Assembly: GCA_039799905.1 (NCBI GenBank)
Contig: JBDLRP010000032.1
Span: 62,070 to 126,069, forward strand
Length of the DNA: 64,000 nucleotides
Direction of reading: 5' to 3'
Source: Pseudomonadota bacterium
GTDB taxonomy: Bacteria; Bdellovibrionota_B; Oligoflexia; Silvanigrellales; Silvanigrellaceae
Shown here: positions 14,411 to 18,687 of the stretch, piece by piece
How the letters are laid out: each line of letters opens with the position of its first letter
How positions within the stretch are numbered: the stretch's first letter is position 1
Position numbers and translations under genes: made by a program
Notes under the pieces: model-generated
The model's database searches: none
The model's input: only the letters and a program-made list of their open reading frames with translations
What the model was told of the DNA's origin: nothing

Positions 14411-14929
14411 TCATTCCCCAAGCCGCTCATCAAGGCGTGCGCGGCATGCCTCGACCTTGGGTTTGAGTGACGGAACTGCACCGCCGCAGTCCCAGTCTTT
14501 CCAGCCGGCACGCGACAATCTGATAAATCCGCAATCGGCATTTGTTTGTGGATCTTCGAGGTCATAACCGCATTTGCGGCCGCGCGTGTCCCATGCTGGC
14601 TGAGTCGGATGAAGTACGCCGCGCCCCGCTTCGGTACCCGGATACGAATCGTTGATTTGAAAAAGTCCGACGTGGACTCCTGTGCGCATATCTGCCCTCC
14701 CTGCGGATTCGCACAGGATGATGCATGTTGCGCGATTGCGATCCCAGCGGGGAAAGCCAGCTTTGTCGACGTAGGAACGCAGTTGCAAAAGCTCGCTGTC
14801 GGACATCAGCAGGTCGTCGCTGGCACCTGTTACTTTAGATTCATGAGCGGATTTTTTTGCATCTGAAGAGCACGAGGCTGCAATCACAGTTGTCATGCAG
14901 AGTGAGAAAATCAACTTCATGTTTTTCAT
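14411..14929 (-). CDS. Lipoprotein with a lysozyme-like/SLT transglycosylase domain
   Basis: Lipobox IAASC, catalytic CES motif, GLFQIN, and GWKDW. GAGGAA RBS. Confidence 0.75.
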   Translation of the reverse strand: MKNMKLIFSLCMTTVIAASCSSDAKKSAHESKVTGASDDLLMSDSELLQLRSYVDKAGFPRWDRNRATCIILCESAGRADMRTGVHVGLFQINDSYPGTEAGRGVLHPTQPAWDTRGRKCGYDLEDPQTNADCGFIRLSRAGWKDWDCGGAVPSLKPKVEACRARLDERLGE

Positions 14930-15155: not shown

Positions 15156-16013
15156 ATGGTGTGCCGTTGGTTGGTGCCGCTTGGCGCCTGCTTTCTTGTT
15201 GCGTGTGGCAACAGTGATCCTGAAGCTCTCATGCGTGCAGAGATTCTCAACGTGGGTTTCATTCCCTATGAAACGCCTCTCGAATTTGCGGGCACGGGAA
15301 CACTCGTCGGTGGCAAGCCCTACGAGATGCAGCTCATCGCACCGCCGGAGAGTTGTTTTCCAAATTCCGCAGGTGGTTCGCCGACACAGTTGCGCGTTGT
15401 CGACAATACCGAATTACCGATGAAGTCGAATGCCTTTCAGCTCACAGGAAATGCCCGAGTTGGTTTAGTGGATGCACTCGGCAGTGGTAATGCTCCCATT
15501 TCTGCGGGTGTATCGTTCAACAGGGCACAGCGTGTGGATTTCAGTTACACAAGGCCAAAGCGGGAATATTTTGATGCGATCAAGCTCACCGGCTTTTATC
15601 GCAATCAGCTCCCCGACATTTGCAAAGATTATCTGGATAAGGTCGGCTTCATCTCGGAAGCAATCAAAGTGGATGAGATGAGATTTAAATTTTACTCTTC
15701 CAACGGTGCGGCAATCGACCTGACAGCGATTGATCCCAAGACGCTGCTGGAGATGAGTGTCGGCACCAGTTGGCAAGTTGTGAAAACATATGAGTTGGTC
15801 ATTTCGACGCCAAAATACATCGGATACCGCATGGGGCGTCTGACGCGCGGAGATGACGGTGTTTCACTTTGCCGTGCAAACACGGTGAGCAAAGAGGGGA
15901 ATTATCAATTCCAGTGCCTGAACATGTTTCAGGACCTTGCCCGTCTGAGCAGCCGTTCGTTCACACCTCGCGGGTTCAAGGTCGGGCTCGACGACGTCCT
16001 AGAGATCGAATGA
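15156..16013 (+). CDS. Lipoprotein, candidate gasdermin-like pore-forming protein
   Basis: AAGGAG RBS and lipobox LVAC(17). The sequence pattern resembles bacterial gasdermins (see findings). The CDS itself is well supported; the product call is an inference. Confidence 0.45.
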   Translation: MVCRWLVPLGACFLVACGNSDPEALMRAEILNVGFIPYETPLEFAGTGTLVGGKPYEMQLIAPPESCFPNSAGGSPTQLRVVDNTELPMKSNAFQLTGNARVGLVDALGSGNAPISAGVSFNRAQRVDFSYTRPKREYFDAIKLTGFYRNQLPDICKDYLDKVGFISEAIKVDEMRFKFYSSNGAAIDLTAIDPKTLLEMSVGTSWQVVKTYELVISTPKYIGYRMGRLTRGDDGVSLCRANTVSKEGNYQFQCLNMFQDLARLSSRSFTPRGFKVGLDDVLEIE

Positions 16014-16023
16014 TCGCATTGTT

Positions 16024-16070
16024 TCAGCTGCTATGCCATCCTCGGCGAAGGCATAGCAGCTGACAATTTT
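16024..16070. terminator. 14-bp perfect inverted repeat between convergent genes
   Basis: TCAGCTGCTATGCC (16024-16037) pairs with GGCATAGCAGCTGA (16050-16063), followed by CAATTTT on the plus strand. Confidence 0.65.
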
Positions 16071-17299
16071 CTTCCCGCGATGAAGTCTCCAACGACAAAA
16101 GCGACCGTCAAAACTGCACCCAACAAAGGAAGACTCCAAACCCCGAAACGTTCGATGAGAAATCCGCTCAAAGGGAGAAAAATAATGAGCGCTAACCGTG
16201 TCAGAACTGAGAGAGCCGAGAGGACGGACGCACGACGCTTGTCTTCAATAAGATTGTGCAGCTGAGCGGAGGCACTCAACGTGTACAAGCGGACGAAACC
16301 AAATAGTCCCAGAACGCCGAGTATGCAAAGCCAAAGTCCTGATTTGAAGTAGACTGCAAGCGTTAGAAAAATTGCAGAAGCACCAAGCTGCCCGAGCAGA
16401 ACTCGACTGCCTGCGCCAGAAACCCGTTCAATGCTCAGCGCCTTGCTTGCAATTGACTGAATCACCAGAATTGCGAAAAAGAGCGGTCCAAAAAAAGAGA
16501 GCTTGATTCCGCCAATGAAGAAATTCTCCTGATTGTTATTCATAAAGAAGTATTGCCAATAGGGAATAATCAATTGGTAAAAGACTCCAATTCCAATGAA
16601 CGGAATCGCGATTTTTCGAATCTCGGACGTTGTCCAGATCTGACGCAGGACCTCGCTGAGCTCACCCTGGAGCAATTTCAAAACAGTCGGCTTTGATGAA
16701 GATTTTTGTCCGCTCGAGTGCTCAGCATGAAATGCCGAGTCATCCTTCATCAAAAGTGGAATCAGGCATGTGATCAGCAGGAGAAGAGCTGAAGCAATCC
16801 ACCAAAACAGAGACGAATCAGGGTTGACGAACGTTCCGCCCACGAGTGAAAACAAGGCCATCATGGCAAATAGAACGGCATGATAGTCGCCCAACAATCG
16901 GTTGAGCGCAGGTCGACCGCGGTCGGAAATGTATTTTTCGGCAAGATGTGCATCGAAGGCACCGTTAAAGGACGCAAGTGACAAAGCATTCAATCCCTCT
17001 GCAAGAAGAAGGACCCAGAAAGTGGAACCCGCAGCCGTCAGAGCCAACCAGGATGCTCCCGCTGCACTCCCCAAAATAAGACAGACTCGGCGTCCTCTGC
17101 GGTCTGCAAGAACGCCCAAAGGAAAGTCCAGAAGCATTAGAAGCAAGGCTTGGAACGATTTCATCAGTCCAAGTTCACCCGCAGTAATTCCTTTGCTCAG
17201 TAAGTACAGTGCCGATGTGGCTCCAATGAGCATTCGGGCACTTGAAAAGACCAGCCCGATGGCTGCAACGCTGTTTATTGACGTGAGCATACTTCGCAT
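16031..17299 (-). CDS. MFS efflux transporter (MccC-like exporter)
   Basis: About 12 hydrophobic segments and MFS motif A GVLADRRGRR. Its start overlaps the end of mccB. Confidence 0.85.
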   Translation of the reverse strand: MRSMLTSINSVAAIGLVFSSARMLIGATSALYLLSKGITAGELGLMKSFQALLLMLLDFPLGVLADRRGRRVCLILGSAAGASWLALTAAGSTFWVLLLAEGLNALSLASFNGAFDAHLAEKYISDRGRPALNRLLGDYHAVLFAMMALFSLVGGTFVNPDSSLFWWIASALLLLITCLIPLLMKDDSAFHAEHSSGQKSSSKPTVLKLLQGELSEVLRQIWTTSEIRKIAIPFIGIGVFYQLIIPYWQYFFMNNNQENFFIGGIKLSFFGPLFFAILVIQSIASKALSIERVSGAGSRVLLGQLGASAIFLTLAVYFKSGLWLCILGVLGLFGFVRLYTLSASAQLHNLIEDKRRASVLSALSVLTRLALIIFLPLSGFLIERFGVWSLPLLGAVLTVAFVVGDFIAGRKLSAAMPSPRMA

Positions 17300-18315
17300 G
17301 ACAGGCTCCGAGAAAAGTTTTGCTTTTGGATTTCCAAGCTGTGTGAATAAAAGCCCAAGCGTTGATTCAATGAATGGACCTCGCCGACTCCGGTCAAAAA
17401 ATTCATGATATCGCGTGCTGCGAGTGCCGCGGCCATCTGATTGATGGGGCCCGATGACGCCGGACGATGCCGGGCATTTACCTTTTTAAGAAGATCCGTG
17501 AATGACGCATCATCCGAGTTAAAACTCGCATAAACCTTGCTGCATTCGTGACAGCCGGTTTGCTGCGGCACAACCAATGGGCCCCAAATTGCAATATCAG
17601 CGCAGTATCCGACGTTTATGTAAGGAATTTTTCTGCGCACGGATTCTCTGTTTACCCAGAATAACAGTTCCGACGGAGAATCTGCCGACAGCACCCAGAG
17701 ATCAGCATCTGGAAGATGCGAAGTCGCGATCTCTTCACTCAAATCCAGCTCAGCGGTGTGGATCTCAACTTCTGAGTTTCTCTCCGAGAGTTCACGGGCA
17801 AGGACTTCGATTTTCTTTTCGCCAACGTGTTGCTCTTTGAAAACAAATTGGCGTGTCAGATTTGAGAGCTCAATTGTATCGAAGTCGACCAAATACATTC
17901 TGCCAACCCCGGCGGTGGCAAGTTGCATGGCCACGGCGTTGCCAATTCCACCACATCCAATCACTGCAACAGTGGACTCAGCCAATCGATGCTGCGAACG
18001 ACTTGGTTGTGCATCTCCCATCAAGGAGAAAAACAGTGCATTTCTTGAATAACGACCTGCGGTGGTAATATCGGAAGAAGACATCAATAGAGCTGAATCT
18101 CGAAGGCGCTCGTAGGCCTTCTTCAAGTCTTCTGAACCAGCCAGATCACTTTCAATCTCGGTTGTAGAACGCGGTTCCAGAAAATATTTGAGCACACTCT
18201 TGAATGCTGACTTTTCAGAGGCTTCAGAGGTTGTGATTCTGCAACGTCCCGCTCCCAATATGAGGGTTTCTCCGCGGAATCCTGCTTGTACATATGGGGC
18301 GAGTTCAACTTGCAT
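17275..18315 (-). CDS. mccB: MccB-type ThiF-family peptide adenylyltransferase (alternative TTG start at 18330)
   Basis: RYSRN, VIGCGGIG, D.DTIELSNLTRQ, ADLWVLSADSP, PYINVGY..DIAIWGPLVVP..TGCHEC and terminal CEVC. Has an N-terminal peptide-clamp region and is collinear with E. coli MccB as recalled. Confidence 0.9.
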   Translation of the reverse strand: MQVELAPYVQAGFRGETLILGAGRCRITTSEASEKSAFKSVLKYFLEPRSTTEIESDLAGSEDLKKAYERLRDSALLMSSSDITTAGRYSRNALFFSLMGDAQPSRSQHRLAESTVAVIGCGGIGNAVAMQLATAGVGRMYLVDFDTIELSNLTRQFVFKEQHVGEKKIEVLARELSERNSEVEIHTAELDLSEEIATSHLPDADLWVLSADSPSELLFWVNRESVRRKIPYINVGYCADIAIWGPLVVPQQTGCHECSKVYASFNSDDASFTDLLKKVNARHRPASSGPINQMAAALAARDIMNFLTGVGEVHSLNQRLGFYSHSLEIQKQNFSRSLSCEVCSRQ

Positions 18316-18344
18316 GATTTTGAGTTCCAAAAACGGTGGAATGA

Positions 18345-18383
18345 GAAAAATAGTGAGCCCCTCGACAATCGTTGAGGGGCTCA
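18345..18383 (-). terminator. Hairpin between mccA and mccB (intrinsic terminator/attenuator-like)
   Basis: Minus strand reads TGAGCCCCTCAAC-GATT-GTCGAGGGGCTCA, followed by CTATTTTTC. Confidence 0.8.
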
Positions 18384-18396
18384 GTTCAGCAGACGC

Positions 18397-18420
18397 TTAG
18401 TTACGAACGATGAAATCCAC
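18397..18420 (-). CDS. mccA: Microcin C-like precursor heptapeptide MDFIVRN
   Basis: AGGAGG-GTCCC-GTG GAT TTC ATC GTT CGT AAC TAA: seven codons ending in Asn, directly upstream of mccB. Confidence 0.9.
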   Translation of the reverse strand: MDFIVRN

Positions 18421-18467
18421 GGGACCCTCCTGTCATTGACGCTGTGATGTGTAACCAAGAATCGGTT

Positions 18468-18483
18468 AGCAACTGGCGTGCCA
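18468..18483 (-). promoter_or_regulatory. Sigma-54 -24/-12 promoter upstream of mccA
   Basis: TGGCACGCCAGTTGCT matches consensus TGGCACG-N4-TTGCW exactly. Confidence 0.75.
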
Positions 18484-18687
18484 AGTGATCGGGATGGCTA
18501 TTTGATCAATAAAATAATGTGCTTATAGAAAAATGGGATTTCGAAGGAGCATTGTTCATGAATCGTTTGAATCACCTGTCCGATTTCCAACCAGAATCTG
18601 GCTGAAAACCGTTCATGCGATCGTGGGCGCTTGCGTGATGACTTTCAATGACTTCTGGATGTGCTGACAGTCTACAAACGATTGGCG

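Follow-up and report, generated by a model that had tools for sequence, protein, structure and literature searches.

A minimal mccABC cluster with the heptapeptide precursor MDFIVRN and a predicted sigma-54 promoter in a Silvanigrellaceae genome

We analyzed a 64,000-nucleotide (nt) stretch of contig JBDLRP010000032.1 from an uncultured bacterium, probably of the family Silvanigrellaceae (hereafter, the window), which carries a minimal mccABC cluster whose three genes encode a seven-residue peptide, the enzyme predicted to modify it, and a transporter. A preliminary description of this DNA had proposed such a microcin C-type cluster with an unannotated heptapeptide, made up of an AGGAGG motif ahead of a GTG-started, seven-codon open reading frame (ORF) for MDFIVRN, a hairpin, an MccB-like ThiF enzyme, and an overlapping major facilitator superfamily (MFS) gene. 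Each of these elements was found again, the motif and the short ORF upon rereading the minus strand at 18431-18397, together with a predicted promoter that had been missed. From the promoter downstream, the features of the cluster, with L006 and L007 denoting the loci of two congeners, are as follows:

18468..18483, minus strand: predicted sigma-54 (-24/-12) promoter, TGGCAC-N5-TTGCT, whose GC ends 49 nt before the mccA start
18426..18431, minus strand: Shine-Dalgarno (SD) sequence of mccA, AGGAGG, with a 5-nt spacer to the GTG; kept in L006, with a purine-rich equivalent in L007
18397..18420, minus strand: mccA, precursor MDFIVRN, with a GTG start, read as GTG GAT TTC ATC GTT CGT AAC TAA (18420-18397)
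18343..18383, minus strand: mccA-mccB intergenic hairpin (stem 18383-18354) with a U-rich tail, a predicted partial terminator; -23.5 kcal/mol, z-score -4.8, 0/200 shuffles
17275..18315, minus strand: mccB, a ThiF/E1-like peptide nucleotidyltransferase of 346 amino acids (aa) without a C-terminal fusion; PF00899 at E 1e-42, MccB-type residues and fold
16031..17299, minus strand: mccC, an MFS transporter and predicted exporter; PF07690 at E 3.7e-14, overlapping the mccB ORF by 25 nt

A longer in-frame precursor is excluded in the window by an in-frame TGA 15 nt upstream of the mccA GTG on the minus strand; longer in-frame forms exist in L007 (24-32 aa) and in L008, a locus from an Oligoflexales genome. 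Only four ORFs in the whole 3.38-Mb genome combine an SD sequence, seven codons, and a final Asn, so that 1.8e-4 would be expected by chance per 300-nt stretch. The identical MDFIVRN is encoded at L006 and L007/L086, and it is kept in all three cluster-bearing genomes of the genus, whose mccA genes differ at four synonymous positions and by one GTG/ATG swap but encode the same amino acids throughout; a metagenome contig is near-identical to the second congener's locus and is not independent evidence of conservation. Judged from these comparisons, the precursor is under selection, since the peptide is identical in two congeners with synonymous changes only. At L008, whose MccB is 46% identical, the precursor is MNFIVRN. 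A 25-codon, TTG-started, Asn-ended ORF overlapping mccA in another frame was rejected as the precursor; it has no SD sequence and is absent from L006 and L007.

The ThiF-family ORF spans 17275-18330 at its longest, with the ATG at 18315 as the more likely start because close homologs begin there. Its best match in the Protein Data Bank is Escherichia coli MccB (E 2.7e-73, compared to only 6e-15 for ThiF), to which it is 38.6% identical globally, and it scores under the ThiF and MoeB family cut-offs. In E. coli numbering, the residues kept are G124/G125/G127, D146, R157, Q158, K170, D214, R94, R322, I243, and the four Zn cysteines. The predicted model (predicted local distance difference test score 88) gave a template modeling score of 0.89 against 6OM4, the complex of E. 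coli MccB with formyl-MccA, and the protein ends at the Zn motif, without a methyltransferase fusion. The enzyme has a peptide clamp at its N-terminus as well as the ATP and Zn sites and is, by sequence, of the MccB type rather than a housekeeping ThiF or MoeB. The MccB proteins of two congeners are 89% and 76% identical to it. In a quick IQ-TREE analysis of 67 enzymes (seven short or broken sequences dropped), the MDFIVRN enzymes grouped together (Shimodaira-Hasegawa-like approximate likelihood ratio test 100), with the MNFIVRN enzyme as sister (99), among heptapeptide MccBs.

The mccC product is 28% identical to E. coli MccC over its first 99 aa (E 9e-12), and 90% and 74% identical to its counterparts in L006 and L007, respectively. 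The 81-nt gap between mccA and the likely mccB start holds the intergenic hairpin, which a simple terminator scan did not pick up; its stem shows two-sided changes at 5 of 11 pairs among four sequences, two of them near-identical.

We compared this arrangement with known mcc systems. Three-gene clusters are the commonest published type, most mcc clusters consisting of just these genes (PMC8323819), so the cluster is another three-gene mcc cluster and not a new system. Like the minimal clusters of Helicobacter pylori (MKLSYRN), Streptococcus thermophilus (MKGTILN), Lactobacillus johnsonii (MHRIMKN), and Bartonella washoensis (MDHIGFN) (PMC4010828, PMC8323819), it has three genes with a seven-codon, Asn-ended precursor, a strong SD sequence, an intergenic hairpin, a stand-alone MccB, and an MFS gene, and no linked tailoring or immunity gene. 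The mccA-mccB gap measures 84 bp in H. pylori (PMC4231749). It differs from these clusters in its peptide, its host family, and the upstream sigma-54-type site, and its MccB is ~34% identical to the B. washoensis enzyme. With E. coli microcin C7 (mccABCDE plus mccF), it shares the MccB fold and active site, a heptapeptide precursor, and the order A-hairpin-B-C; in contrast, it is a chromosomal insert and not plasmid-borne, has no mccD, mccE, or mccF, carries Asp2 for Arg2 in the peptide and Arg at Tyr14 and Cys at Glu26 in MccB, and has a predicted sigma-54 promoter instead of a stationary-phase promoter dependent on the catabolite activator protein (PMC4231749). The mccD and mccE1 genes of E. 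coli-type aminopropylated microcin C (McC) were not found in the 93.8% complete genome, which has only a distant unlinked decarboxylase. The cytidylating clusters of Bacillus amyloliquefaciens and Yersinia pseudotuberculosis likewise have an Asn-ended precursor and an MccB-type domain, but their 19-42 aa precursors, MccB-fused methyltransferase, and MccS were not seen in the window cluster.

As the preliminary description had advised, MDFIVRN was compared with published precursor catalogs, and it is absent from the supplementary tables of PMC6495379 and PMC8323819. It also had no match in the full-text literature searched, which did not extend to papers behind subscription or to the supplementary files of PMC7157772, PMC9239234, and PMC11118369, where the peptide could be listed. 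The same literature yielded nothing relevant on microcin C in the host lineage. The microcin C class itself is well known; MDFIVRN, the host group, and the predicted sigma-54 promoter are new relative to the literature searched.

Below phylum level, the closest named relative of the window's lipoyl synthase is from Silvanigrellaceae (86%), whereas Fluviispira and Silvanigrella stand at 66-69% and some close matches bear other, loose labels; the family placement is based on this gene. The cluster is patchily distributed. MccB (E <= 1e-35) was found in 7 of 131 Oligoflexia genomes, among them three of the 13 genomes of the genus and none of the 20 others from the family. The preliminary description would have counted orthologous mccB genes without a seven-codon, Asn-ended ORF against it; in 7/7 class genomes, such an ORF, SD-led, lies upstream of mccB. 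Two further ThiF-MFS pairs from within the family, 26-29% identical to MccB, came out of a profile search (L155 in G023 and L156 in G028), the former with no heptapeptide nearby and the latter with a seven-codon, Asn-ended ORF without an SD match. A flanking lipoprotein gene is present in 12/12 congeners (13/13 genus genomes); in four of the 12, it directly adjoins the CNNM gene (an empty site), in one it adjoins the cluster, and in seven it has other neighbors or a contig end. The L007 genome has an empty site here and carries its cluster at another locus. GC content at third codon positions (GC3) is 0.48-0.51 in the cluster, compared to 0.57-0.65 in seven flanking genes. Together, the empty sites, the second location, and the low GC3 argue, at the level of sequence, that the cluster is a mobile insert. 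No transposase or integrase ORF was noticed among the ORFs adjoining it. Full-length MccB, 31% identical, occurred in one of 23 viral loci, and thus no phage vector was found for this clade; that locus, L128, on a contig from the IMG/VR viral collection, pairs its full-length mccB with the precursor MLGKTRN. The metagenome scan, which covered 46 of 64 parts, gave one locus.

The sigma-54 consensus is GG-N10-GC within TGGCAC-N5-TTGC. The site upstream of mccA matches it perfectly, and the window has no second perfect site; when the entire window was shuffled 100 times, 18 of the shuffles contained at least one perfect site somewhere. Counted as TGGCAC-N5-TTGCW, perfect sites number 15 genome-wide, with 2e-4 expected in the 95 positions scanned upstream of mccA. 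A sigma-54-type site (score 9-11 of 11) precedes the precursor in 6/7 Oligoflexia clusters but in only 2/57 other loci, four of the class's sites sitting 48-50 nt from the precursor, and none was present in the Bartonella, E. coli, and Anaerococcus (MKGTILN) mcc loci scanned. In the host genome, an ATG-started ORF of at least 100 aa follows 11/15 perfect sites, compared to 2/17 wrongly spaced sites and 139/600 random places; for a lipobox-type start, the corresponding figures are 7/15, 0/17, and 7/600. About half of the 15 perfect sites precede lipoprotein-type ORFs. This pattern suggests a sigma-54 regulon of secreted proteins in the host lineage. The host genome encodes RpoN, and six of its proteins strongly match the activator domain. 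Scanning for sigma-70 promoters gave none ahead of mccA, and no activator motif common to eight upstream regions was found by eye. We predict that mccABC is preceded by a sigma-54-type promoter. Control of an mcc operon by sigma-54 or RpoN was not found in the literature searched, where the one co-mention examined concerns other bacteriocins; the E. coli operon is the CAP-dependent precedent noted above. One further feature lies upstream:

18578..18610, strand not assigned: imperfect palindrome ~100-125 nt upstream of the -24 element, either an activator site or the terminator of the upstream CNNM gene

The palindrome is present in the window and L006 and was not seen in L007, and its loose pattern is common in the genome.

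We then considered tailoring and immunity. No mccD, mccE, mccF, or HIT gene adjoins the cluster, nor does mccS, the search for which was limited to the neighborhood, and E. coli MccD and MccF queries had no match in the host genome (93.8% complete). The undecorated peptide-adenylate put forward in the preliminary description remains the probable product, given this lack of an MccD match and of a methyltransferase fusion. By analogy, AMP is likely the transferred nucleotide because all MccBs known to cytidylate in vivo carry a methyltransferase domain (PMC8323819), which is absent here. The same description had immunity rely on efflux. It was right that no immunity gene adjoins the cluster, but sole reliance on efflux is too strong, because an MccE query found a RimL/MccE2-like acetyltransferase (25%, E 5e-18) elsewhere in the genome, which also encodes an unlinked S51 peptidase. 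The latter has Ser-His-Asp, with the Asp 27 residues after the His by eye, compared to 28 in MccG, an S51 clade V protein (PMC9239234), and occurs in 10/12 congeners whether or not they carry the cluster, with a stop in two copies. From their sequences, these two enzymes may assist immunity. The decarboxylase half of MccE also has a distant unlinked match (21%, E 1e-7).

Three other candidates were rejected: a short HIT protein as MccH, since it lacks the ExxxxxHxHxK motif, keeps the third His, and is HinT-like (PMC7157772); an S66 match as MccF, which is an LdcA-like domain fused to Mpl; and a second, resistant aspartyl-tRNA synthetase (AspRS), the four PF00152 matches being AspRS, LysRS, AsnRS, and EpmA by size and N-terminus, of which only AspRS was confirmed by scan. 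The genome also has a second, weak HIT match (L107). The S66 fusion (L105, contig C36 of the host genome, 3053-5668) joins an LdcA-like peptidase to the murein-peptide ligase Mpl in one frame of ~870 codons. Among related clusters, L019 (2857-3477) and L033 (8277-8861) have an acetyltransferase-like ORF directly after the MFS gene by eye, a candidate immunity gene; both carry a sigma-54-type site, and the window's cluster has no such adjoining ORF. The host genome has no M18 aminopeptidase match and three M17 enzymes, scanned in their catalytic parts only; a YejA search gave four family-5 binding proteins, none assignable as YejA.

The preliminary description singled out the hydrophobic carrier as the distinguishing trait of the peptide, which does not hold, as hydrophobic heptapeptides (MRLIIRN, MIARLLN) are already cataloged. 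The informative residue is Asp2 and not hydrophobicity (PMC4010828). The Asp2 peptide MDHIGFN of B. washoensis is adenylated, but its product is not inhibitory to E. coli, and the derived hexapeptide resisted trimming for 60 min (PMC4010828). By analogy, the MDFIVRN product may behave like this poorly processed one, in which case a yej-based test in E. coli may be falsely negative; Asp2 thus changes how the compound must be assayed.

A possible partner of residue 2 emerged from MccB itself. In 6OM4, Tyr14 of MccB serves peptide residue 2 as a platform (PMC6385645); among the matches listed, this structure paper alone mentions Tyr14, unrelated work aside. In the column at E. coli Tyr14, the window's enzyme has Arg, as do the five closer homologs P0003 and P0005-P0008, which are close kin, and the MNFIVRN enzyme has Met. 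Where peptide residue 2 is Asp or Glu, this column of the alignment is Arg or Lys at 14/15 loci, compared to 1/50 other loci, counts that leave out enzymes without a found precursor. When the loci were collapsed to 32 lineages at 60% identity, the figures were 5/6 versus 1/26, and column 14 was the best of 350 columns (family-wise permutation 7/2000); at 50% identity, they were 5/6 versus 1/22 (17/2000). A search for more acidic-2 lineages, covering 400 scored genomes of Chlamydiota and 18 of G132's order, brought in new precursors that all have Asn2 with MccB Leu14, which fits the rule and adds no acidic case. A charge swap at Glu26, examined first as the partner of residue 2, showed a weak link only (p 0.03-0.05) and was set aside. 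These comparisons make it likely that a basic MccB residue 14 pairs with an acidic peptide residue 2 as a recognition rule. Such a rule matters because MccB/peptide pairs serve as orthogonal protein-labeling tools (PMC11118369).

Some signal came from RNA. In one metatranscriptome run, 0.39 of the sampled words were present, and contigs of that run (four on mccB and mccC, one on the lipoprotein gene) were all at least 99% identical. This evidence is weak, in that it comes from one study with contigs lacking strand and with DNA carry-over possible. RNA run X1 gave no contig over mccA and X2 nothing on the cluster, neither of which shows absence.

In all, mccABC probably makes a microcin C-type formyl-peptide-AMP prodrug that the MFS protein would export and that would block AspRS in bacteria that import and trim it. 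We observed the anatomy, the conservation of the peptide, the intact active site, and the insertion; the chemical and physiological steps that follow are inferred, some of them from work on E. coli. RpoN with an activator would transcribe mccABC from upstream of mccA, and the intergenic hairpin would yield surplus mccA message, as its counterpart does in E. coli and H. pylori (PMC4231749). MccB, its Arg14 pairing with peptide Asp2, would spend two ATP, via a succinimide by analogy, to form an N-P bond at the last Asn and give formyl-MDFIVR-isoAsn-AMP, with a calculated m/z of 1251.50, which MccC would export. A victim would take up the compound through a peptide ATP-binding cassette system, trim it, and lose AspRS activity; Asp2 would slow aminopeptidase trimming and narrow the victim range, and this slow trimming may protect the producer alongside efflux and unlinked housekeeping enzymes. 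Neither the chemistry nor the target is expected to depart from what is usual in the class.

Several observations weigh against this scheme or its parts. An antibacterial role is not assured because MDHIGFD-AMP, the only Asp2 heptapeptide adenylate to have been assayed, was inactive on E. coli (PMC4010828). In the alignment, Glu26 and Val240 of E. coli MccB, which belong to the formyl pocket, are both replaced by Cys, and a sigma-54-type site is absent from one cluster of the class (G052). Concerning residue 14, the column was spotted by eye before the column scan, an underpowered, tree-based independent-pairs test (42 rows) gave three supported pairs, 2.7 the same way and 0 opposite (p 0.25), the pairwise alignment sets Phe13 instead of Arg14 opposite Tyr14 (a register off by one), and L012 and L085 break the rule. 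Finally, at 93.8% completeness of the genome, unlinked tailoring genes may be missed.

It is unlikely that the adenylated peptide, although made, acts as a signal or self-regulator rather than a competition antibiotic, with Asp2 keeping it unprocessed. The inactive Asp2 precedent and the lack of a linked immunity gene would fit such a role, as would the promoter type shared with secreted lipoprotein genes (7/15 perfect sites), but AspRS is the target of every McC-like compound that has been studied (PMC9239234), the patchy presence at different loci fits an antagonism cassette, and the acetyltransferase-like ORFs of L019 and L033 speak the same way. Quite improbable is a final product bearing another nucleotide or a decoration from unlinked enzymes: E. 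coli MccB accepts all four nucleoside triphosphates in vitro (PMC8323819), and the genome, which is incomplete, has the distant match to the MccE decarboxylase half, yet there is no MccD match, methyltransferase fusion, or adjacent mccS, and the heptapeptide pairs assayed so far were adenylated (PMC4010828). An acquired cassette that is silent or decaying, as the cluster's apparent absence from 10/12 congeners and its low GC3 might indicate, is highly improbable given the intact frames, the synonymous-only peptide history, the two-sided stem changes, the retained promoter-like site, and the RNA-run contigs.

We tentatively offer a wider proposal, which we regard as rather doubtful: Oligoflexia mcc cassettes would be placed under sigma-54 with secreted lipoproteins and released on an activator signal (e.g., cell contact) and not on starvation; Asp2 would be a safety lock replacing dedicated immunity and restricting killing to bacteria with acidic-residue aminopeptidases; and MccB residue 14 would be a repeatedly arisen code for peptide residue 2. 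If true, this code could guide the design of orthogonal MccB/tag pairs. With the analysis, the range of microcin C-type clusters comes to include Silvanigrellaceae as well as other Oligoflexia, and unlisted precursors are added. Two ideas can be put to the test: that an mcc operon is controlled through sigma-54 and its activator, and that a single residue governs how MccB reads its peptide.

Beyond the cluster, one further structure and two lipoprotein-like genes were noted on its mccC side.

16018..16067, strand not assigned: strong hairpin over the mccC end, facing the convergent lipoprotein gene, a possible terminator; z-scores -5.4 and -6.3 on the two strands

The convergent lipoprotein-like gene (15156-16013, plus strand) weakly matches the prokaryotic gasdermins (E 5e-6, 26 bits versus a cut-off of 100) and has a faint Atlas lead of 0.84 (Bact_GSDM in 13% of members). 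Between it and ubiX lies a small lipoprotein-like gene (14411-14929, minus strand) with a weak lysozyme-like SLT_3 match below the cut-off; it may be a second insert, because three congeners (L088, L089, and L094) show no match at the corresponding spot.

Among the other mcc loci, mccB frames ending early beside intact precursors (31 aa in L041, 214 in L042, 155 in L073, and 214 in L161) are possible pseudogenes or assembly errors. The following heptapeptides are absent from the two published tables, as available, in PMC6495379 and PMC8323819: MDITSGN (L009), MDDEASN (L012), MNTTLGN (L014), MNTVPGN (L016), MNSVVRN (L019), MNTTPRN (L020), MNDQSWN (L025), MNSTARN (L033), MNTDTSN (L035), MRKYVHN (L048), METEIGN (L065), MGDSMAN (L069), MNGFSSN (L071), MDDLIRN (L072), and MNIITMN (L165).

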